Source: a virus (taxonomy: Duplodnaviria > Heunggongvirae > Uroviricota > Caudoviricetes). Taken from it: DNA of 41,003 nucleotides. This document shows, piece by piece, positions 523 to 21,155 of the stretch. Under the pieces are notes generated by a model that was not told where the DNA came from, made no database searches, and saw nothing but the letters and a program-made list of their open reading frames with translations. The position numbers and the translations under genes were made by a program. The stretch lies in IMG/VR virus record IMGVR_UViG_3300045988_002471, positions 1-41,003 of that record, one strand, 5' to 3'. Positions within the stretch are counted from its first letter, which is position 1, and each line of letters starts with the position of its first letter.

Positions 523-1149
523 ATGGGTATTAAACTGAATCTGCGTAAAGTAAACACTGCATGGGTTAACGTATTCGAACGCGAAAAAGACCGTGAAAAC
601 GATGATGGCTCAATCACTAAAGGCCAGTACAGCGCGACTATCATCCTGCCGTCTGACCACGCACAAATCGACGCGCTCTACGACACCGTTTACGCTGTGG
701 TTGAAGAAGCGTTGGGCGCAGCTGCCGCTGAGAAGTGGATGAAGTCCAACTATGGCGAAGGTAAGCACATGGATAAATGTGCGATTAAAGACATTACCGA
801 GCGCGACAATCCGTTTGAAGACTTCCCGGAAGGCTTCTACTTCAAGGCGAAGGCACAGAAACAGCCACTGATTGTAACCTCTAAAAAAGGCGAGACTCAG
901 GTAGAACAGGACTTCAATGTAGACGGCGAACAGATTGAAGGTGAACAGGTTTACAGCGGCTGCGTCGCTAACGTAAGCGTTGAAATCTGGTTCAGCCAGA
1001 AATATAAAGTTCTCGGGGTTAACCTGCTGGCGATTAAATACGTAGGCGAAGGTAAAGCGTTCGGTGGTTCTAAAGTCGCTGCAAGCGTCGATGACCTTGA
1101 AGACGATGAAGAGGATGAAGCACCGCGCCGCGAACGTCGTCGCCGTTAA
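523..1149 (+). CDS. Phage single-strand DNA-binding protein-like (DUF2815-like), acidic C-terminal tail
   Basis: 208-aa ORF next to the DUF2800-like exonuclease; MGIKL start and DDLEDDEEDE tail; family assignment from memory. Confidence 0.5.
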   Translation: MGIKLNLRKVNTAWVNVFEREKDRENDDGSITKGQYSATIILPSDHAQIDALYDTVYAVVEEALGAAAAEKWMKSNYGEGKHMDKCAIKDITERDNPFEDFPEGFYFKAKAQKQPLIVTSKKGETQVEQDFNVDGEQIEGEQVYSGCVANVSVEIWFSQKYKVLGVNLLAIKYVGEGKAFGGSKVAASVDDLEDDEEDEAPRRERRRR

Positions 1150-1168
1150 TATCTGAATCAATTTAACT

Positions 1169-1192
1169 AAGGCCCTTCATTGGGCCTTTTTA
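1169..1192 (+). terminator. Rho-independent terminator hairpin (AAGGCCC-ttcatt-GGGCCTT + T-run)
   Basis: GC stem followed by TTTTTA directly after the SSB-like gene. Confidence 0.6.
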
Positions 1193-1203
1193 CCGGAGTC
1201 AGA

Positions 1204-1677
1204 ATGGAACATATAAAAGATTTTCTAAGCTACGACCGAGAAACCGGGGTATTCACGTGGATACAGCCTACTTACCGTCGAGGGCGACCGGGAGACATCG
1301 CGGGGTGCATCAATAGTAGTGGATACTGGCGAATTCCGTACATGGGTCGATATTACATGGCGCACAGGCTGGCGTGGTTTTTCGAGTATGGTGAATGGCC
1401 CGAAGGTCCTCTTGATCATATAAACCGTGACAGGTTAGACAATAGGATTTCTAACCTAAGGAAAGCAACAACCGCCGATAATGTGCGAAACGCTAAAAAT
1501 AAGGGAGCTAGAACAGGAGTAAAGGGAGTAGTTAAAAACGGCAACCGATTTTACGGGCGTGTGCATTTTAACTACAAAAGTTATAACGCCGGTAGCTACG
1601 GAACTCTTGAAGAAGCAGAAAGCGCTGTAAAGAAATTAAGAGAAAAACTGCACAAGGAATTTTATTGCCATGACTAG
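1204..1677 (+). CDS. HNH homing endonuclease with C-terminal AP2 domain
   Basis: DHINRDRLDNRISNL HNH motif and GVKGV...GRVHFNYKSYNAGSYGTLEEA AP2-like region; start moved to ATG 1204 after RBS GGAG because the track start lies in the terminator. Confidence 0.75.
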   Translation: MEHIKDFLSYDRETGVFTWIQPTYRRGRPGDIAGCINSSGYWRIPYMGRYYMAHRLAWFFEYGEWPEGPLDHINRDRLDNRISNLRKATTADNVRNAKNKGARTGVKGVVKNGNRFYGRVHFNYKSYNAGSYGTLEEAESAVKKLREKLHKEFYCHD

Positions 1678-13035: not shown

Positions 13036-13532
13036 TGCATAGGGTCCCAAATTCGTGGAAACGTTGATTGTGCGGTTCCGTAGGCTTTAAGGAAACACCC
13101 CAGCCCATCACCATAGCAGCCGTACAAATCGGGCAGATTGTTAATCAGGCACTGGTTCTCAAGGTCCTGGAACGGTGATTTCTCGGCGGTTGCCGTGAAG
13201 GTGATTGTCCAGTTAATCCCGTCTTCGGTGGACTCGGCGATAGTGGACGTAATGGTTACCTGATAATCTTCGATGCCCATGCCGAAGTCGTGCGCCATCC
13301 AGAAACTTGACGCACCACCGTCTACTTTTTCGAGGAACGACAGAAACGCCTGCCGTCCCAGTGCCGATGTAATCAGGGTTACGCTAACAGGGAACACGTC
13401 GTAATACGTGTCACGGCCCTGACGCACCCCGCCACCGGCTAAATCTACACTCCAGACGTTGTTACGTCTGGTCATTGAGTAGCCTTTCGATACAATTGGC
13501 TTAAGGCTACGTGGGAAATATAAGTCGCTCAT
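13032..13532 (-). CDS. Minor tail protein (distal tail, downstream of tape measure)
   Basis: 166 aa; start overlaps tape-measure stop. Confidence 0.45.
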   Translation of the reverse strand: MSDLYFPRSLKPIVSKGYSMTRRNNVWSVDLAGGGVRQGRDTYYDVFPVSVTLITSALGRQAFLSFLEKVDGGASSFWMAHDFGMGIEDYQVTITSTIAESTEDGINWTITFTATAEKSPFQDLENQCLINNLPDLYGCYGDGLGCFLKAYGTAQSTFPRIWDPMQ

Positions 13533-15805
13533 TATTTAAACCCCGGCGCATTTCTTGTGGCTTTGCGGGCCTTGCTAATCTTACTGTTGCTGTTCTGCAA
13601 AGATGCAGCAACTTGCTCTTCTATGATGATACGCAGACGGCCTTCATCATCTTGCTCAGTAGATACGTTGCCAATTTGAGAACTCGTGTTGTTTACGATA
13701 GTAACATTAGACGGGCCGGAAGAAGACCCGTTTTGCCCCATAATTTCTTTCATCTGCTGCGCGGTGCGAACACGCGATGCACCCGCGGGCATGATAACTT
13801 CTGGTTTACCGCGTTCAGCGATAGTAGAAGCCTGCCCGGCGGATAACTGCCCACCCTGTTCACGCGCAGACCTGATAGCGGAAACCTGCGCCATACCCGC
13901 CCCAACGGCAGCGGCGGCCGCTACAGGCGCTAAGAACGGGCCGACTACAGGGATAGCCGCCGTTGACTTATACGCCTCAATAGCCGCGGTGTACGTGGCG
14001 ATGGTGGCCTGTACGATAGCGAATGCCTTGTACGCACCAGAAGCCTCCCCCAACGCAGACCCGATGTTTGAGGCCATGTTACCAAAGGCGGTTGCCGTTG
14101 CGTCGGCGCGCTTCGTAGCATACTGCTCGTTGATGGCGTTAAGCGCGGCCTGGTACTGTTTCTCATTAATAAGCCCCTGCTCACGGTACTTATCCGCTAC
14201 CGCCAGTTTCTGCTGTTCCTGGATGTCGAGAAGCTCAAGCTCAGTAGCGTTCTGACCCATAATCTGAGCCATGAAGTCGTCACCTTTCTGCTGCTTTTCC
14301 TGGGCTTCTTTCTGGCGTTTATCCAGTTCATCTTGCCGTTTTTGCCCGGCTTCGAGGACGATAGCTGTTTTAGCCTGTTCGTATTCTTTCAGCGACAGCG
14401 CGCCCTGGCTGTAGAACTCTTTTGCCTTAGCCAGTTTCTGCTGTTCCTGCGCGTCGATAGCCTTTAACTCATCGTTGTTCTGGCGAGCCAAAGTGTCGAG
14501 GTAATCCTGCGCCTGATTCCGCAATTGTTCTGCTTTCTTGGCGGCGGCTTTTGCTGCTTTATCGTCGGTGTTTCCTGCCCCGCCAGTTCCGCCCTTTTTA
14601 TTAACAAGACTGGCTAAGTCAATTTCTTGCTTCTTGCGCTCGTCGTACTGCTTGCGCTGTTCCTCAATTTCTTTCTTACGCTGCTTAGACCTGTTGGTAA
14701 TGGCCTGTGATTCTGCCTCAGCGCGTTTTATGCTAGCGGCGTACGCGGCGTCGGCCTCTGCGGTCAGGTTTTTAAATGTTAGCGCCGCCGTTTTGCTCGG
14801 GTCAAACACGTCGGCAAGGGTCTGCCCTAACGCTACAGCGTAATCGTCGATGCGCTGGAACCACGCAATAACCTCGTGAAATGTCTGCTGGATGTCCGGC
14901 AACCACTCACGGATGGCATCCGGTATAGTCCCCAGCGAGTCAGACATATCAACGGATTTGTCATCGGTATCGAATGCCAGGTCATTCAAGGCGTCGGAAA
15001 TAAACTTGAATGACTCATTGAACAGCGCCACCCAATCCTGGAGCGTGGCGGCTATCTCATTAGACGCGATGGCGTCGGTAAGCGCCGTGATAGCGTCTTC
15101 CGCTGTGGCCGCTTGCTCACCTACGGCGCCGCCAAAACCAGACCGCGCCACCGCAAGAACAAGACCGTCGAAGGAGTCGGCGAGGCTCGATAACTGGCCG
15201 TCTAGCGTCTTAGAGCGCGTCTCCATCGCCCCGGCAAAATCGGTGTTGCCGATATTCAGGAGGTATTTCTGAATCTCTTCGGAGTTCTTCTTAACCGTGG
15301 TCGTTACGCCGCGGAACGTGAACGAAACTGTATCTGCCTGTTGCGACGACTTGATGCCGAACTCTTTTAAGCGCTCAAATTCAAATGTACTGGCGTCGGC
15401 AACTGCCTCAATCATCTGATTAAGGTCTTTACCCATAGCCGCCGCGGTGTTGCCGTAGGAGATTAATGCCTCTTTGCTGGGGTTCAGACCGAGCGCAACG
15501 AGCTTGGTAAACCCCTCTACCGCCTGATTGAGACCGTACGGGGTCTCTTTTGCGAACTGTTGCAGGACGCTGAAAGCCTTAGCCGCGTTCTCGGCGCTCC
15601 CGGTCATCGTGATGAGGCTGGAGTTCAGCTTATCGAAGTTTCGCTGGGAATCCACCAGCGCGCTGAACACCTGCTTAGCGGTTTCCAGACTGACAACGGC
15701 GGCGGCGGCGGCCCCCGCCGCCTTGGTAAGCCCGTTCAGTTGTGATGTGGTTTTATCGACGCCGGTCGATGATACTCGTACTATCAAGCTAGCGGTATCA
15801 GCCAT
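13532..15805 (-). CDS. Tail tape measure protein
   Basis: About 757 aa, Ala/Gln-rich coiled-coil composition; follows chaperone pair; start set to ATG 15805 after RBS GAAGG (track start is TTG). Confidence 0.8.
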   Translation of the reverse strand: MADTASLIVRVSSTGVDKTTSQLNGLTKAAGAAAAAVVSLETAKQVFSALVDSQRNFDKLNSSLITMTGSAENAAKAFSVLQQFAKETPYGLNQAVEGFTKLVALGLNPSKEALISYGNTAAAMGKDLNQMIEAVADASTFEFERLKEFGIKSSQQADTVSFTFRGVTTTVKKNSEEIQKYLLNIGNTDFAGAMETRSKTLDGQLSSLADSFDGLVLAVARSGFGGAVGEQAATAEDAITALTDAIASNEIAATLQDWVALFNESFKFISDALNDLAFDTDDKSVDMSDSLGTIPDAIREWLPDIQQTFHEVIAWFQRIDDYAVALGQTLADVFDPSKTAALTFKNLTAEADAAYAASIKRAEAESQAITNRSKQRKKEIEEQRKQYDERKKQEIDLASLVNKKGGTGGAGNTDDKAAKAAAKKAEQLRNQAQDYLDTLARQNNDELKAIDAQEQQKLAKAKEFYSQGALSLKEYEQAKTAIVLEAGQKRQDELDKRQKEAQEKQQKGDDFMAQIMGQNATELELLDIQEQQKLAVADKYREQGLINEKQYQAALNAINEQYATKRADATATAFGNMASNIGSALGEASGAYKAFAIVQATIATYTAAIEAYKSTAAIPVVGPFLAPVAAAAAVGAGMAQVSAIRSAREQGGQLSAGQASTIAERGKPEVIMPAGASRVRTAQQMKEIMGQNGSSSGPSNVTIVNNTSSQIGNVSTEQDDEGRLRIIIEEQVAASLQNSNSKISKARKATRNAPGFK

Positions 15806-16130
15806 GATTTCTACCTTCAAAGATTGCTTCTAAGCCCATGATAATGTCTATCTCGAACAGGCTAAGCTGTTTTTGCGTAACATCGAGATAGGCTTTCAGG
15901 TCTTGCCACGTAACAGATTCTCTTGCAAACAATACTACAGCGTCCTCGCGCACGTGTCGCGTAAACTTAATGTCGCAATACGTCTCAAAGGTGGATATAA
16001 AAAGGGGCGGGCATTCTGGCCCGCCCCGTCGCGCTGCACGTTTTTTCTTATCGATTACACCCATCGCGATAAGCGCCTGTTCGTGTCCGTCGGCGATAGA
16101 ATCAAACTCTCTGATTTTATGCTTATCCAC
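15798..16130 (-). CDS. Tail assembly chaperone T-like frame, probably expressed as a G-T fusion by -1 frameshift
   Basis: Frame is open from 16181 with no ATG; -1 relative to the upstream gene; GGAAAAG at 16166..16172. Confidence 0.45.
   Translation of the reverse strand: MDKHKIREFDSIADGHEQALIAMGVIDKKKRAARRGGPECPPLFISTFETYCDIKFTRHVREDAVVLFARESVTWQDLKAYLDVTQKQLSLFEIDIIMGLEAIFEGRNHG
16004..16035 (-). terminator. Intragenic terminator-like hairpin (GGGGCGGGC-N6-GCCCGCCCC then TTTTTATAT on minus strand) inside the T-like frame
   Basis: Perfect 9-bp GC stem at 16004..16027 with a U-run on the coding strand. Confidence 0.45.
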
Positions 16131-16162
16131 AAACTCGTAGGTGGCGAACCTGTACAGCGCGT

Positions 16163-16579
16163 CTACTTTTCCTGTAATACTTTACGCTCGGCGTTATGGA
16201 ACGCCGCCACCTGTGTGCCTAATGCCTTGAACTGGTCCAGCAATTTGTTAAATGCTTCTTTAGAGAAAGGCTCATCAAAGCTCCAGCCGTTTACGACTTC
16301 TGCCGCGAGTTGCCGGTTGAGGTCTTCCGCCAGTTCGTTAATAGCCAGGTTATATTCAGTATAGTCGCCGGATTCTTTGGCGGCTTTTTCCAGTTCTTCG
16401 AAACGCGCCAACCCGCGACGGTACGCAATAATGAAAGCACGCCCCGCTTTAACGGCGACATCCGCATCGGGACTTACAACGTTAAGCCATTCACCGGAGT
16501 CTTCGCCGTTTGGCAGGAGAATCGGCATCTTCTTGCCCGCCAGTGCTTTCTCTTCGAAATAAAAATCAGAAAGTTTCAT
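16163..16579 (-). CDS. Tail assembly chaperone (lambda G-like)
   Basis: 138 aa, acidic; directly upstream of T-like frame and tape measure. Confidence 0.55.
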   Translation of the reverse strand: MKLSDFYFEEKALAGKKMPILLPNGEDSGEWLNVVSPDADVAVKAGRAFIIAYRRGLARFEELEKAAKESGDYTEYNLAINELAEDLNRQLAAEVVNGWSFDEPFSKEAFNKLLDQFKALGTQVAAFHNAERKVLQEK

Positions 16580-16687
16580 TCTTTAATCCTTTGGTTAAGA
16601 GGTTACAGGTTAACGATAAATGCGCCAGACGGGAACCACCCGCTTTTCGTGTGCGACACTAGGCGCAAACTTATTCTATCACATTAC

Positions 16688-16716
16688 TTGCACACCCCAA
16701 TATAATAGGGTACTAT
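16688..16716 (+). promoter_or_regulatory. Promoter TTGCAC-N17-TACTAT with operator-like palindrome (16703..16720) driving the plus-strand island
   Basis: -35 at 16688..16693, -10 at 16711..16716; the ~38-bp block recurs at 34662..34700 and 35663..35700. Confidence 0.55.
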
Positions 16717-16746
16717 TCACTTACACCAACAATGAAGGGGTTTAAA

Positions 16747-16938
16747 ATGTCCAGTTTACCAGTTTCCTTAATTCTGTTTGCACTGCTCGCTTATTTCGCG
16801 CCTTTCCTGGTTGCGTACTTCCGTAACCATAAAGCGAAGTTAGCGATATTCATGGCTAATCTGTTTCTTGGTTGGGTTCTGCTGCCGTGGGTATTTATTT
16901 TAATCTGGGCTTGCAACTCGAATGTCAAAGAGAAGTGA
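16747..16938 (+). CDS. Small two-TM membrane protein, superinfection-immunity (Imm)-like
   Basis: MSSLPVSLILFALLAYFAPFLVAYF...NLFLGWVLLPWVFILIWACN; start at ATG 16747 after RBS AAGGGG; Imm assignment is from memory of the family motif. Confidence 0.45.
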   Translation: MSSLPVSLILFALLAYFAPFLVAYFRNHKAKLAIFMANLFLGWVLLPWVFILIWACNSNVKEK

Positions 16939-16976
16939 GCTAGTATAGGACAAATCCTAAACACGAGGAAATAGGC

Positions 16977-18107
16977 ATGGCCCAGAAGAAAATAACCGAC
17001 GAACAGTTACAGGAAGAATTGAACGCTGGGATGAAGAATATCGACATTGCTCGTAAATACGGCATCTCAGACCGCGTAATTCGTATCCGTAAAGCGAAGC
17101 TGGCTAAGAAAGGCGTAGGTCACGGGCGCGACGTTAGTCACCTTGTGCCGGACGGCTACAAGATTAAAGGAACGTCGTCACTGGTGGACGAGTTCGGCAA
17201 CACTAAGTTGCAATGGGTTAAAACCGACACTGACGCCGAACGTCAGGTTGAGTTGATGAAGGCCGTAATCGAGGGCATGAAGTCGGAGATTACCCCCGTT
17301 GCTCCTGTTAAAGCCGTTCGCGCCAAACGAGACGACAAGCTACTCAACCTTTACACTGTGTCTGATTTCCATCTCGGTATGCTGGCCTGGGCTGACGAGA
17401 GCGGCGACGACTGGGACATGAAGATTGCGGAAGACCTGTTCTCCCGCTGGTTCGACGCAGCGTTCCAGAAAGCACCGGATGCAGGAACAGGAGTTATTAA
17501 TCTGCTGGGCGACCTTGCGCATTTTGATAGTCTGGACGCCGTTACACCTGCCAGTGGTCATGTTCTTGACGCTGACACCCGCTATCAGAAACTTGTACGC
17601 TACATGATTCGTATGGTCCGCCGTGTCATTGATATGGCTCTCGTTAAACATAAAAATGTTCGCTTGCTTATCGTGCAAGGTAACCACGACGAAAGCGGAA
17701 TGATTTGGTTGGCTGAGATGTTCAGTACGCTATACGACAACGAGCCGCGTGTGTTCGTCGATACGTCGCCGGATGTTTACAAGATGGTGCAACACGGCAA
17801 AACTACGCTGTTCTTTCACCACGGCCATAAAGCACGATTCGATGCTATCGAACCAGTTATGATCGCCAAGTTCCGCAAAGCGTTCGGCGAGAGTGTTTAC
17901 AGCTACGCCCATATAGGACACCTGCACCATCAGAAGATTGTAGAAAGCCGTAACATGATTGTTGAACAACACCGCACCCTGGCGGCTAAAGACGCCTACG
18001 CCTCGCGCGGCGGATGGATGTCGGGCCGCAGTGCAAACGTAATTACTTATAGTGCCGAATATGGCGAGGTCGCACGTTTAACTATTTCACCGGAGATGCT
18101 TGGATGA
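16977..18107 (+). CDS. Calcineurin-like metallophosphoesterase with N-terminal HTH-like domain
   Basis: Phosphoesterase motifs DFHLG, GDLAHFD, GNHDE, HHGH, GHLHH; N-terminal about 60 aa resemble a small HTH. Confidence 0.7.
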   Translation: MAQKKITDEQLQEELNAGMKNIDIARKYGISDRVIRIRKAKLAKKGVGHGRDVSHLVPDGYKIKGTSSLVDEFGNTKLQWVKTDTDAERQVELMKAVIEGMKSEITPVAPVKAVRAKRDDKLLNLYTVSDFHLGMLAWADESGDDWDMKIAEDLFSRWFDAAFQKAPDAGTGVINLLGDLAHFDSLDAVTPASGHVLDADTRYQKLVRYMIRMVRRVIDMALVKHKNVRLLIVQGNHDESGMIWLAEMFSTLYDNEPRVFVDTSPDVYKMVQHGKTTLFFHHGHKARFDAIEPVMIAKFRKAFGESVYSYAHIGHLHHQKIVESRNMIVEQHRTLAAKDAYASRGGWMSGRSANVITYSAEYGEVARLTISPEMLG

Positions 18108-18589
18108 AAGATATTGTGATTTTCGATTTAGACGGGACATTGGCAGATGGTACTCATCGTTTACACCTGCTGCCGAAAGATAACTACGGCGAAACCTGGG
18201 CGTGGAAACCATTTAACATGGCGTGCAAAGACGATGCACCCATTAAAGATAACATCGAACTGTGTAACGCCATTAATCGTCGCTATGCCGTTATTATCTT
18301 AACAGGCCGTAGTGATGACGCGGAAAAAGAAACCAGAATGTGGTTGCAGCGCCACCGCGTCGAATTTTATCAGTTAATCATGCGCAGCAAACACGACAAC
18401 AGAAAAGACATCGTAATTAAAGAAGAGGTGTTGCGTGCTATTGGGCCGGAGAGAATCTTGTGTGCATTCGACGACTCTCCAGCGGTAATAAAGCATTTCC
18501 GCGAACTCGGCATAACCACTCACGCAGTTACTGAATACGACTGTAACGGGAACTCTACACACTTAAAACCACATGGGAGTGATAAATAA
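18104..18589 (+). CDS. HAD-family phosphatase, T4 polynucleotide kinase 3'-phosphatase-domain-like
   Basis: VIFDLDGTLA (DxDGT), IILTGRS, K, AFDDSP motifs; resemblance to T4 Pnk phosphatase domain recalled from memory. Confidence 0.65.
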   Translation: MKDIVIFDLDGTLADGTHRLHLLPKDNYGETWAWKPFNMACKDDAPIKDNIELCNAINRRYAVIILTGRSDDAEKETRMWLQRHRVEFYQLIMRSKHDNRKDIVIKEEVLRAIGPERILCAFDDSPAVIKHFRELGITTHAVTEYDCNGNSTHLKPHGSDK

Positions 18590-19143
18590 TGGCTAAGGTA
18601 ATTATTCTTAATGGTCCTGCGGGCTGCGGGAAAGACACACTTGCTAGGGCGCTGGTAGAAATGGGCTTTGCGAAGGGTGTCGCCAGTTTCAAGAATCCGA
18701 TGTTCAATATTGCTATGGCTGCGTTAGGCCAGGATGCTTACCGCGAGTTTCTCGACGGCTACGACGACCGGGCGCGGAAAGAAAAGCCAGAGGGTTTCCT
18801 TAACGGGTTGTCTCGGCGTCAGTTCATGATTGCCATTTCCGAGCAATTCATTAAACCGGTATTCGGTGATGATTATTTCGGCAAGTATCTTGCCGGAAAC
18901 TTGCCCGACGGCAACGAAGTTTTTGTAGTGTCCGACGGTGGATTCGCCAGCGAAGTAGCCCCTATCGTTGCCGCGGGGCATGATGTGAGAATCGTCCGCT
19001 TGCACAGAGACGGCCATACGTTTGAAGGGGACAGCCGCGGTTACCTGTACGATATTGATGGTGTAAAAGATTACGACACCTACATCATACCGGGTGACGT
19101 TAAATCGAACGTTATAGACATTGCTTTAAAATTAGGTTTGTAA
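18589..19143 (+). CDS. P-loop kinase (dNMP-kinase-like or polynucleotide-kinase-like)
   Basis: Walker A GPAGCGKDT; about 184 aa; start overlaps upstream stop. Confidence 0.6.
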   Translation: MAKVIILNGPAGCGKDTLARALVEMGFAKGVASFKNPMFNIAMAALGQDAYREFLDGYDDRARKEKPEGFLNGLSRRQFMIAISEQFIKPVFGDDYFGKYLAGNLPDGNEVFVVSDGGFASEVAPIVAAGHDVRIVRLHRDGHTFEGDSRGYLYDIDGVKDYDTYIIPGDVKSNVIDIALKLGL

Positions 19144-19180
19144 GAAAAAAAAAAAGGCCCCGAAAGGGGCCTTAGTTTTA
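19144..19180. terminator. Bidirectional rho-independent terminator (A-run, AAGGCCCC-gaaa-GGGGCCTT, T-run)
   Basis: Perfect stem flanked by A12 and T-run between convergent genes. Confidence 0.75.
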
Positions 19181-20350
19181 TGCGTAGGTGATACGTTGAA
19201 TTACGATAGACGACTGGTACTGATTGCCGGTAGCCTGGCCTTCAATGGACTGAGTGATTGACTCAGGCCCACCAATCTCAGGTGTAACCGCCGTAAGCTC
19301 TGCACGTTTCAAACTGAAAGACATAGCCCCGTTTACCCCTGCCAGAATAGAGTTAATCTCTACCTGCTGCTCGTTGATAAACTTCTGAATCATCGCCATG
19401 TCGTACAGCTTGCCAGAGATAGAGAATGTGTTAGCTGCGCGTCCACGTTCGACGAACGCCACGCTACTGTTACCGAGTTCGAACTGCGCGGAAGCTCCGT
19501 TGTCGTTGGTGATGGTGAGAGTATCGCAACGCAACGGCGTGGAGCCATCGAACACCGACACATCTACCGACGAGAACGGCTCATCGGTGAACGTAACCTG
19601 AGAGAAATCAGAGCCAGACGGCGACGCGGTAAGAATCTCCTGACTCAGGCCGATGAACGGGAAGCTGCCGGTGACCATGGCGTTAACCGCCTGCTCTACG
19701 GTAAAGCCAGAGATTTCCACACCTTTGGTCAGCATGTACGCGTCCGGGGTACCACACTGGCCCTTGAACCACGTCAGGATGGAGAACGTCTTACACGCGT
19801 TACCGGTTTCCAGCTTGTCGCCAGTTTTTGCGTCAGTGGTTACTGTCTCTGCTGTCAGCGTGTGCTGAATACCTGCGCCCGTAACTACCAGAGCGGAAAC
19901 CGCGGTCACGATAAACGGTTTTGCGTTGTCGCCGGTTAAGTCGGTGAACGCAATCAGGTCGCCAACTTCAACGCCGTCGGTAATAAAGCTGCCATCGGCA
20001 CGGGTGAACGTCTTGCCTGCGGGTGCAACGGTAATCGATAACCCTGACAGAGAAACCCCGGACTGCCACGTAGAGCCTAAAGCGCCCGCCAGCCAGTCGT
20101 CCTGGCTTTTCGAGCTAAGCTCAATTGCGTACTCCCCGCTAACCTGTTTGTTGCCGGTGCGGATGGAGGTAGTTTCACGGCTGCCGTCCAGTTCGTTGGA
20201 TGTCAGTGTGTCGCGGGTAATGGCAGGAACGCCACCCGTGTTACGCAACGGCGACCATACCGGGTTAGTCGGTGTTACACCCGGGGTCGCTTCCGCCACA
20301 TAGAATTGCGCCGTATTCGCGCCCTTAAAAGGAGTTGTAGCCATATTCAC
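19178..20350 (-). CDS. Major tail protein (putative)
   Basis: 390 aa; directly downstream of tail-completion genes; ATGA coupling. Confidence 0.55.
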   Translation of the reverse strand: MNMATTPFKGANTAQFYVAEATPGVTPTNPVWSPLRNTGGVPAITRDTLTSNELDGSRETTSIRTGNKQVSGEYAIELSSKSQDDWLAGALGSTWQSGVSLSGLSITVAPAGKTFTRADGSFITDGVEVGDLIAFTDLTGDNAKPFIVTAVSALVVTGAGIQHTLTAETVTTDAKTGDKLETGNACKTFSILTWFKGQCGTPDAYMLTKGVEISGFTVEQAVNAMVTGSFPFIGLSQEILTASPSGSDFSQVTFTDEPFSSVDVSVFDGSTPLRCDTLTITNDNGASAQFELGNSSVAFVERGRAANTFSISGKLYDMAMIQKFINEQQVEINSILAGVNGAMSFSLKRAELTAVTPEIGGPESITQSIEGQATGNQYQSSIVIQRITYA

Positions 20351-20760
20351 AGCCTCTTGGTGAATGCAATAAAGTTAATTGACAATGGTCGTTTGGCCCA
20401 TCCGTTTTCTACAATCAGCGGCCCCAGGCTAACCGATTGAACCTCGGCGCAGATGTCGTTACGTGAAAATGACTTACCTGCTTTAAACGCCGTGTTAAGT
20501 AAGTCTGCCATTTTATTGATCGGCGCGCTACCTTTCACCGATGCGTAGTTAATGTTGACCTGATAGATGCCCGCGCGTTGTTCCGTGAAGAACAAATCTG
20601 CTTGCTCCGTATCCGCCAGCAACATGTAACTTGCCAGATACGGCGTATCGGTTGACGTCGGCGCGTCGATGTTTTCAAGCGCGACCTTAATGCCGTTGGT
20701 GGTTCCGAAGGCTACCAGCGGCACATCGAACGCTTTCGTTAAGTCCTCAAAGTAGCCCAT
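20347..20760 (-). CDS. Tail terminator / tail completion protein (putative)
   Basis: 137 aa; position just upstream of the major tail gene. Confidence 0.45.
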   Translation of the reverse strand: MGYFEDLTKAFDVPLVAFGTTNGIKVALENIDAPTSTDTPYLASYMLLADTEQADLFFTEQRAGIYQVNINYASVKGSAPINKMADLLNTAFKAGKSFSRNDICAEVQSVSLGPLIVENGWAKRPLSINFIAFTKRL

Positions 20761-21155
20761 TATTTCACCTTGTTGGCTTCTTCGTTAATGAGTTGCTGGA
20801 AACGCGATATATTAGTTCTTACCATACCTTGTGGTGCCTGTCGCGACCAGCCATACTCCAGCCGTTGTGCATACGGCAGATTATTTGTCAGCGTGAACTC
20901 GCGCCAGTCTGTAGCTTTAAGCACGAAACTTGTAGCGTTTCCGGTTGCCGTGTTTCCTGATTTATCCGTAGCGTCTGTAATTCCGGAAGCGGGAGTGCCG
21001 CCAGACGCCATCCAGTTCATACGAAAGCGACCTGTATCTACCGGACTTGCCTTTATGATAGCGGAAAACAGTTTGATAGACACCTGACGCATCACCTTCT
21101 CGGGGTTCTTCTTCGCCTTTTCCACGAACTTAGAGACATCAAGCGCGAAACTCAT
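20760..21155 (-). CDS. Head-tail joining protein, HK97 gp10-like (putative)
   Basis: 131 aa with PVDTGRFRMNW motif recalled for this family. Confidence 0.45.
   Translation of the reverse strand: MSFALDVSKFVEKAKKNPEKVMRQVSIKLFSAIIKASPVDTGRFRMNWMASGGTPASGITDATDKSGNTATGNATSFVLKATDWREFTLTNNLPYAQRLEYGWSRQAPQGMVRTNISRFQQLINEEANKVK

Follow-up and report, generated by a model that had tools for sequence, protein, structure and literature searches.

The viral DNA considered here, hereafter the window, comprises nucleotides 1 to 41,003 of the IMG/VR record IMGVR_UViG_3300045988_002471 and belongs to Kagunavirus in the subfamily Guernseyvirinae, with 98.1% identity to Escherichia phage K1G over a 1-kb query around the site discussed below, a query that matched 117 phage records. 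The hosts are Enterobacterales. The subject of the analysis is a pair of overlapping reading frames on the minus strand, directly upstream of the tape-measure gene, which we interpret as a tail assembly chaperone gene, G, and a -1-frame extension, T, that would be joined by programmed ribosomal frameshifting. All features of this locus lie on the minus strand (Table 1).

The protein families agree with such an interpretation. G matched Pfam PF08748 Phage_TAC_4 with 26.3 bits (cut-off 21.1), and the -1 open reading frame (ORF) matched PF23812 Phage_TAC_18 with 67.6 bits, above the curated cut-off, over residues 38-122 of the translation that begins at 16181. Both parts fall within phrog_15027, a fused G-plus-T family of 259 positions, with G covering positions 1-138 (E 1.6e-70) and the T segment positions 139-259; phrog_313, named "tail assembly chaperone," was also matched at the locus in the PHROG comparison. 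The overlap of the tape-measure ATG with the T stop was found in all relatives. Gene order, protein families and frame relation thus bear out the G/G-T arrangement upstream of a tape-measure gene that had been proposed from the sequence of the window.

Table 1. Features of the frameshift locus, with positions in the window.
Feature	Position	Strand	Basis or remark
Gene G, tail assembly chaperone, 138 aa, 15.5 kDa	16163..16579	minus	ATG at 16579, stop TAG at 16165..16163; ORF list and translation
T segment, -1 frame, 122 codons	15798..16166	minus	GTA (16166..16164) to stop TGA at 15800..15798
Tape-measure gene, Pfam PF20155 TMP_3	13532..15805	minus	ATG at 15805..15803, overlapping the T stop (ATGGCTGA)
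Heptamer GGAAAAG, phase G_GAA_AAG	16166..16172	minus	sequence
Tetramer A_AAG, probable functional core	16169..16166	minus	NNA_AAG invariant in the loci of ~120 relatives
0-frame stop TAG, directly 3' of the slip codon; candidate "shifty stop"	16163..16165	minus	sequence
-1-frame stop TAA, 5' bound of the shift window	16182..16184	minus	sequence
GCGCTG hexamer, T codons 3-4, separated from the slip codon by 5 nt	16155..16160	minus	conserved at synonymous positions
GTG, first canonical start in the -1 frame (T codon 13); candidate, judged not used	16128..16130	minus	no Shine-Dalgarno sequence upstream
Terminator-like hairpin GGGGCGGGC-CAGAAT-GCCCGCCCC plus TTTTTATAT, inside the T coding segment	15995..16027	minus	best terminator-like match in 13-21 kb

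At the site itself the minus strand reads CGT AAA GTA TTA CAG GAA AAG TAG ACG CGC TGT in the 0 frame, so that G ends with CAG GAA AAG TAG and AAG is its last sense codon. The -1 frame continues after its TAA with AGT ATT ACA GGA AAA GTA GAC GCG CTG and stays open for 127 codons, from 16181 to the TGA at 15800-15798. The stretch in which a -1 shift is possible is the 19-nt overlap of the two frames (16181..16163). No ATG, GTG or TTG occurs in the -1 frame from 16181 down to the GTG at 16130, and the only near-cognate codons in this interval are ATT and CTG. By translation, the fusion protein GT, join(16579..16166, 16166..15798), has 260 aa and a mass of 29.6 kDa, and its junction would read ...VLQEK/VDALYRF..., where the slash separates the two parts; the Glu-C peptide across the junction would be KVDALYRFATYE. 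The original prediction had placed GGAAAAG at 16166-16172 with GAA AAG in the 0 frame and GGA AAA in the -1 frame, and had described the frame of 15798..16130 as -1 relative to G and open up to 16181 without a start codon; the minus-strand sequence and its translation agree on both counts. The heptamer had also been said to lie four codons before the upstream stop, which is not so: AAG directly adjoins TAG, and it is GGA that is the fourth -1-frame codon after the -1-frame TAA.

The relatives were 31 IMG/VR loci retrieved with G, 80 retrieved from IMG/VR with a T profile, and 11 annotated phage records. A first combined set held 41 sequences in 12 lineages (clusters at 85% amino acid identity), and a second search, which overlaps the first set, held 78 loci in 22 lineages. 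Overall there were about 120 relatives, with identities down to 49% for G and 38% for T. Salmonella phage SS3e (L034, NC_006940.2) was left out: its G and T were matched by tblastn as a single piece (590..1380) and its G was called in fragments (646..903), which is probably due to indel errors in an old record, and its shift region is intact, with GGAAAAG TAG as in other Jerseyviruses.

In all 41 loci of the first set G ends with NNA AAG and a stop codon, in the forms GAA AAG TAG (27 loci), GCA AAG TAA (7), GAA AAG TAA (3), GCA AAG TAG (2), GGA AAG TAG (1) and GCA AAG TGA (1). The same ending was found in 77 of the 78 loci of the second search, where the preceding codon is GAA (61 loci), GCA, TCA, GGA or AAA, and the stop adjoins AAG in 21 of the 22 lineages. 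All three stop codons occur, which argues for "a stop" rather than for a particular sequence. A_AAG is retained while the penultimate residue changes among E, A, S, G and K, and the first three bases of the heptamer vary among the relatives (GGA, CGC, GGC, GTC, GGG and AAA). The match to the heptamer pattern X_XXY_YYZ fails in the relatives with C_GCA_AAG, G_GCA_AAG or G_TCA_AAG and is found only in RP180 and L123/L124. Raoultella phage RP180 (L009/L058) has the textbook heptamer G_GGA_AAG at the same place, with Glu137 changed to Gly, and the most distant relatives, the IMG/VR contigs L123 and L124, have A_AAA_AAG. In all three the stop still follows AAG directly.

Such constancy of A_AAG over about 120 loci would be highly improbable given how codons are used in these genes. 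At residues that are identical between lineages the codons match in a fraction of 0.45, which means that synonymous sites are largely randomised, and in these genes AAG makes up 35% of the Lys codons, GCA 18% of the Ala codons and GAA 57% of the Glu codons. Just one further Lys column is shared by all lineages, and it has AAA in 8 and AAG in 4. With low codon identity and mixed usage elsewhere, the invariant A_AAG indicates conservation at the nucleotide level. In four relatives (L021, L023, L104 and L108) the -1 frame opens no more than 6-7 nt ahead of the G stop, and in such a narrow shift window the frame change must fall on C_GCA_AAG itself. On these comparative grounds, the conserved part of the putative signal is A_AAG abutting a stop codon and not a canonical heptamer. 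The heptamer had been named as the shift site, and while the frameshift locus is supported, GGAAAAG is non-canonical and only A_AAG plus the stop is conserved.

The T frame is conserved in length and sequence. In every lineage the -1 ORF has 121-122 codons and its end falls on the tape-measure ATG, and its protein sequence is conserved from codon 1, with invariant V1, A3, L4, A8, F21, D22, I24 and H28. The first ATG, GTG or TTG of the frame can be found anywhere from codon 1 to codon 109 (for example at codons 32, 35, 51, 58 and 109 of 121), and no conserved start codon or Shine-Dalgarno sequence for the T frame was found across the lineages examined. These data bear on the prediction of the gene callers, according to which T starts at the internal GTG at 16130 (110 aa) or at the ATG at T codon 35 (88 aa). 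The ORF list is in favor of it, database clusters contain both the 110-aa and the 88-aa versions, and the PF23812 domain begins after the GTG and near the ATG. However, the GTG is lost by synonymous change in the close relatives L002, L006, L008, L015 and L022, the first start is at T codon 109 in L032 and L033 and at codon 58 in L043, there is no Shine-Dalgarno sequence before the GTG, and the 12-34 residues upstream of the internal starts are strongly conserved as protein. We consider an internal start of this kind very improbable, and the comparative data strongly favor the view that the -1 ORF is translated from the shift site, as had been suggested.

Two further explanations are that RNA polymerase slips on the A run, or that the two frames reflect a sequencing error or a pseudogene. 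Four consecutive A's are present at the site, and nothing more speaks for slippage during transcription, a process that needs a run of about 8-9 nt; the run here has 4 nt, and 3 nt in the GCAAAG relatives. The same two-frame layout is found in about 120 independent genomes and contigs, and with this recurrence sequence error or decay is excluded. The probability that we assign to these explanations together is close to nil.

The hypothesis that we favor is that a -1 frameshift on A_AAG at the end of G yields the 260-aa G-T tail chaperone fusion, and we hold this to be very probable from the arrangement and conservation of the sequences. We infer that a small fraction of the ribosomes translating G slip back by one base on A_AAG when they are at the last sense codon. 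The slipped ribosomes would then read GTA GAC GCG CTG and so on for 122 further codons, giving the 29.6-kDa GT beside the 138-aa, 15.5-kDa G. Most likely, the tRNA-Lys (anticodon mnm5s2UUU) would slip alone, from AAG to AAA. The adjacent stop probably acts as a pause, which would let the peptidyl-tRNA-Lys slip in the P site while the A site awaits a release factor, and no RNA structure would be involved. By analogy with lambda, the tape-measure protein would be coated by G and by the G portion of GT, the T part would recruit the tail tube protein, and a low frameshift rate would set the G:GT ratio.

Several features of A_AAG make it a plausible place for such a slip. The in-phase tetramer, in phages with Enterobacterales hosts, conforms to the Z_ZZN pattern of single-tRNA slippage, and among tetramers in E. 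coli A_AA.G shifts most readily by a wide margin, with 5.6% frameshifting in the presence of a pseudoknot (PMC4066793). The G-T system, slippage on A_AAG and the wobble of tRNA-Lys have been reviewed (PMC5009743), and the shiftiness has been ascribed to weak pairing of AAG with mnm5s2U34 in a single tRNA-Lys(UUU) (PMC5009743).

A related hypothesis accepts the frameshift but explains it by the classical, simultaneous slippage of two tRNAs on G_GAA_AAG, with the stop being irrelevant. In this phage the neighboring tRNA-Glu could follow from GAA to GGA via one central G.U pair, as inferred from its anticodon UUC, so that the event may resemble tandem slippage, and both routes would give the same junction. 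The motif named "twofour" in PRFect, taken to be of the GGAAAA type, is listed together with a discussion of G.U re-pairing (PMC10274946). GAA is the most common preceding codon, RP180 has a perfect G_GGA_AAG, and one lineage, L088, keeps A_AAG without an adjacent stop. These points are to be set against at least six lineages with GCA_AAG or TCA_AAG that keep the whole arrangement although the P-site tRNA cannot re-pair there (with CGC, GGC or GTC), and against the adjoining stop in the other lineages, which would be unexplained if it were irrelevant. Since the upstream tRNA is unable to re-pair in the GCA_AAG and TCA_AAG lineages, the event that is conserved must be slippage of tRNA-Lys alone; for this particular phage, tandem slippage is possible but the less probable of the two routes.

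The hypothesis of a single-tRNA slip next to a stop also has to face a number of observations that weigh against it. The stimulatory role assigned to the stop leans on the concept of the "shifty stop," which is said to originate with Weiss et al. in 1987. GGAAAAG does not follow the pattern X_XXY_YYZ, since its positions 1-3 are G, G and A. A downstream stimulatory structure was sought and not found: the 116 nt of the window that follow the site fold no better than shuffled sequences (z = +0.74), and the RNAalifold consensus for 15 lineages consists of 3 trivial pairs with -0.7 kcal/mol, which is no conserved structure. In reporter assays, tetramers as a group reached 0.147% without a stimulator, compared to a background of 0.112% (PMC4066793). 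In the sole exception to the adjoining stop, L088 (AAG TTA TAG), A_AAG is kept and a sense codon precedes the stop. CTG or TTG is present at T codon 4 in all lineages, which leaves room for low-level reinitiation. Furthermore, the genome announcement of phage Shashou mentions "no canonical slippery sequence" (PMC6776780), and no experimental, proteomic or genetic evidence of the fusion in the Guernseyvirinae was found in the literature.

Other candidate stimulators were also considered. An Rfam scan of 15600..16800 returned no element at the shift site. A Shine-Dalgarno-like stimulator upstream of the site was rejected: the AGGA is inside the heptamer and too close, and it is absent in the GCA and TCA lineages. 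What is conserved downstream is the hexamer GCGCTG, with T codons 3-4 being GCG CTG in 19 of the 22 lineages, GCG TTG in 1 and GCC CTG in 2, in genes where GCG accounts for 34% of the Ala codons, CTG for 21% of the Leu codons and CTG plus TTG for 36%. The alignment consensus fold for 15 lineages revealed no pairing partner for GCGCTG. The hexamer may exert a primary-sequence effect as 3' context, or it may be related to the CTG or TTG that has been annotated as a start.

A rival hypothesis is that T is a separate protein, made by initiation or by termination and reinitiation at the near-cognate CTG at 16157..16155 (TTG in Jerseyvirus and Shashou), with AGGA as a weak Shine-Dalgarno sequence. 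Between the G stop and the CTG there are 5 nt, and the CTG starts with the sixth base. Starts at CTG or TTG are annotated in Bas74_0026, Shashou (with the ribosome-binding site at AGGA), Ent2, TS33, SCS44 and SG102, phrog_4557 is a family of such separately called ORFs, and codon 4 of T is CTG or TTG in 22 of 22 lineages, compared to the 36% of Leu codons mentioned above. E. coli initiates very poorly at CTG, and reinitiation would not account for the invariance of NNA_AAG and the adjoining stop in the face of a changing penultimate residue. Moreover, a distance of 12 nt separates AGGA from the CTG, the GCA_AAG and TCA_AAG lineages lack AGGA, and the CTG sits within the longer conserved GCGCTG, so that the constraint extends beyond a start codon. 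In the lambda paradigm the functional species is not the free T domain (PMC5009743). Taken together, we regard a separate start at this codon as improbable and favor the slip on A_AAG.

The heptamer as such does not stand out from what is expected by chance. GGAAAAG occurs in 3 copies in the window, where 4.84 +/- 2.19 would be expected, so there is no enrichment. The other two copies, both on the minus strand and by coordinate arithmetic in the same phase G_GAA_AAG, are at 14300..14294 in the tape-measure gene and at 21123..21117 in the ORF 20760..21155; with two further in-phase copies, the heptamer alone is not diagnostic. In-frame NNA_AAG accounts for 31 of 11,555 codon pairs (0.27%) in the ORFs of the window, and the chance of at least one in the 6-codon overlap is about 1.6%. 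Among the 43 window ORFs of at least 100 aa, G alone ends with NNA AAG and a stop. The evidence above chance is the position of the site plus its conservation in relatives, not the heptamer itself.

Two additional RNA elements were noticed in the vicinity of the frameshift site. One is the strong terminator-like hairpin within T, about 135 nt 3' of the shift site, which has a stem-loop at 16027..16004 with 9 G-C pairs and a 6-nt loop, followed by TTTTTATAT, and codes for RGGPECPPLF. It has the layout predicted for an intrinsic (rho-independent) terminator, that is a G+C-rich stem-loop and a U tract on the transcribed strand. Several other lineages of the Guernseyvirinae also have hairpins at these codons, with T-rich tails and with outer stems that differ but covary (outer stems AGAGGGGC/GCCCCTCT, AAAGGGGC/GCCCCTTT, AATTAAAGGGGC/GCCCCTTAATT and GACGGGGC/GCCCCGTT, for example), and L022 has a compensatory T-A pair. 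The covariation score from pair counting was 0.275, compared to 0.124 +/- 0.024 in shuffles; none of 500 shuffles reached it, and it exceeded all slid controls. Among the relatives compared, the hairpin is absent in the Jerseyvirus and Cornellvirus-like lineages. It could form because few ribosomes enter the T frame, and we speculate that it could serve as a partial terminator or as a 3' stabiliser of the G mRNA, lowering the expression of the tape measure relative to G. The paper on the K1B4 transcriptome offered no per-gene data useful for the question of termination.

The other element is a match to the int-alpA RNA (Rfam RF02996) at 16669..16605 on the minus strand, in the leader of the G/GT/tape-measure operon and 26 nt ahead of the G start. 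The match is full-length but sub-threshold, with 31.8 bits compared to the gathering score of 35.8. At the same leader position, L038 (phage SCS44) scored 36.6 bits and L040 (KMB35) 35.8 bits, both at or above the gathering score, and five other relatives scored 27.8-33.5 bits. A more speculative and rather unlikely extension of our hypothesis is that the recoding signal of the whole subfamily would be a minimal, structure-free A_AAG plus stop, possibly aided by GCGCUG, and that the stoichiometry of G, GT and the tape measure would be set jointly by the slip, the covarying terminator-like hairpin embedded in T and the int-alpA-like leader RNA.

The wider gene order also deserves mention. The tail tube gene (PF18906), at 20350..19178, shares the strand of G, and the order of tube and then G is kept, but not their adjacency, as a terminator and four opposite-strand genes (16732..19143) intervene. 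This plus-strand cassette of about 2.4 kb (16732..19173) encodes a superinfection-immunity homologue, a metallophosphoesterase ("DNA repair exonuclease"), a PNKP-type phosphatase and an AAA/ATP-binding protein, and is bounded by a bidirectional terminator-like hairpin at 19154..19173. Given the opposite-strand cassette and the hairpin that bounds it, G, GT and the tape-measure gene must have a promoter of their own in 16580..16740. A sequence search of the GT fusion against the Protein Data Bank (PDB) returned a single weak match, which is irrelevant.

At the level of annotation, the G/GT frameshift is already known from the closest relative, and in this sense it is ordinary. The RefSeq record of K1G has a two-piece, joined coding sequence at the same locus, and an exact look-up of ...ALQEKVDALY... 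identified ADA82267.1/YP_009168804.1. On exact look-up in the protein collection, the alternative junction ...LQGKVD... was absent, the window's own fusion sequence was also absent, and its G was present. Serratia phage Smarc3 carries the annotation "pre-tape measure frameshift protein," whereas in most other records T is a separate "hypothetical protein" with a CTG, TTG or internal start; phrog_4557 (118 positions) represents the separately called T from Leu4. Despite the wording of its announcement, Shashou (L035, MK931440) has GGAAAAG TAG at 14800..14816, with a ribosome-binding site annotated on the AGGA of the heptamer and the T ORF starting from TTG, and this type of annotation issue touches many records of the Guernseyvirinae. 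A literature search for Kagunavirus together with frameshifting found nothing.

The biology of the G/GT chaperone frameshift is itself textbook knowledge, and the main import of our findings is for the annotation of a large group of E. coli and Salmonella phages that are therapeutic candidates. A_AAG against a stop provides a simple rule by which the GT fusion can be annotated across the Guernseyvirinae. Furthermore, the natural series of preceding codons (GAA, GCA, TCA, GGA and AAA), with A_AAG and the stop being fixed, is usable to measure the stimulation of -1 slippage by a stop only.

How does the site compare with known recoding systems? It resembles the A_AAG and NNA_AAG sites of E. coli, such as G_CGA_AAG in IS1222 and the IS3 constructs, where a single tRNA-Lys moves from AAG to AAA and the 5' codon modulates the efficiency (PMC4066793; PMC5009743). 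It differs from the assayed A_AAG constructs, which depended for their efficiency on the IS3 pseudoknot downstream (PMC4066793), in that a stop follows directly and there is no downstream structure; the pseudoknot or stem-loop of a 3' stimulator, 5-9 nt downstream, is lacking at the site in the window. With A_AAA_AAG of E. coli dnaX it shares the A-site codon and the tRNA, and L123 and L124 carry exactly this heptamer, but the upstream Shine-Dalgarno-like element and the downstream stem-loop of dnaX are not conserved here. As in the "shifty stop" sites of prfB (CUU_UGA) and antizyme, the last sense codon would serve as the slip codon with a stop in the A site, where slow termination would give time for re-pairing in the P site. 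These well-known shifty stops are +1 sites, whereas the shift here would be -1, with the contribution of the stop being suggested by conservation only.

A further comparison is with phage lambda, whose G/GT frameshift was reportedly worked out by Levin in 1993 and by Xu, Hendrix and Duda in 2004, 2013 and 2014, and in which the heptamer lies a few codons before the G stop. As for gpG and gpGT (PMC5009743), the tape-measure gene is immediately preceded by two overlapping ORFs, of which the second is in the -1 frame and lacks its own start. In both systems the slip ends, or would end, on A_AAG with tRNA-Lys as the decoding tRNA, no stimulatory RNA structure is known, and an abundant short chaperone and a rare fusion are expected. 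The canonical G_GGA_AAG of lambda is replaced by G_GAA_AAG, of which only A_AAG is conserved, abutting a stop, and unlike in lambda the G gene is parted from the tail tube gene by the opposite-strand cassette. The likeness is one of layout rather than of a comparison of G with gpG, and the proteins of the window fall in Pfam Phage_TAC_4 and TAC_18. Closest of all is ORF22A/22B of K1G (YP_009168805/YP_009168804), also of phrog_15027, which represents the same locus with 98% DNA identity and the same junction, ...QEK/VDALY..., and the two fusion proteins differ in 2 of 260 residues, with nothing of substance between them.

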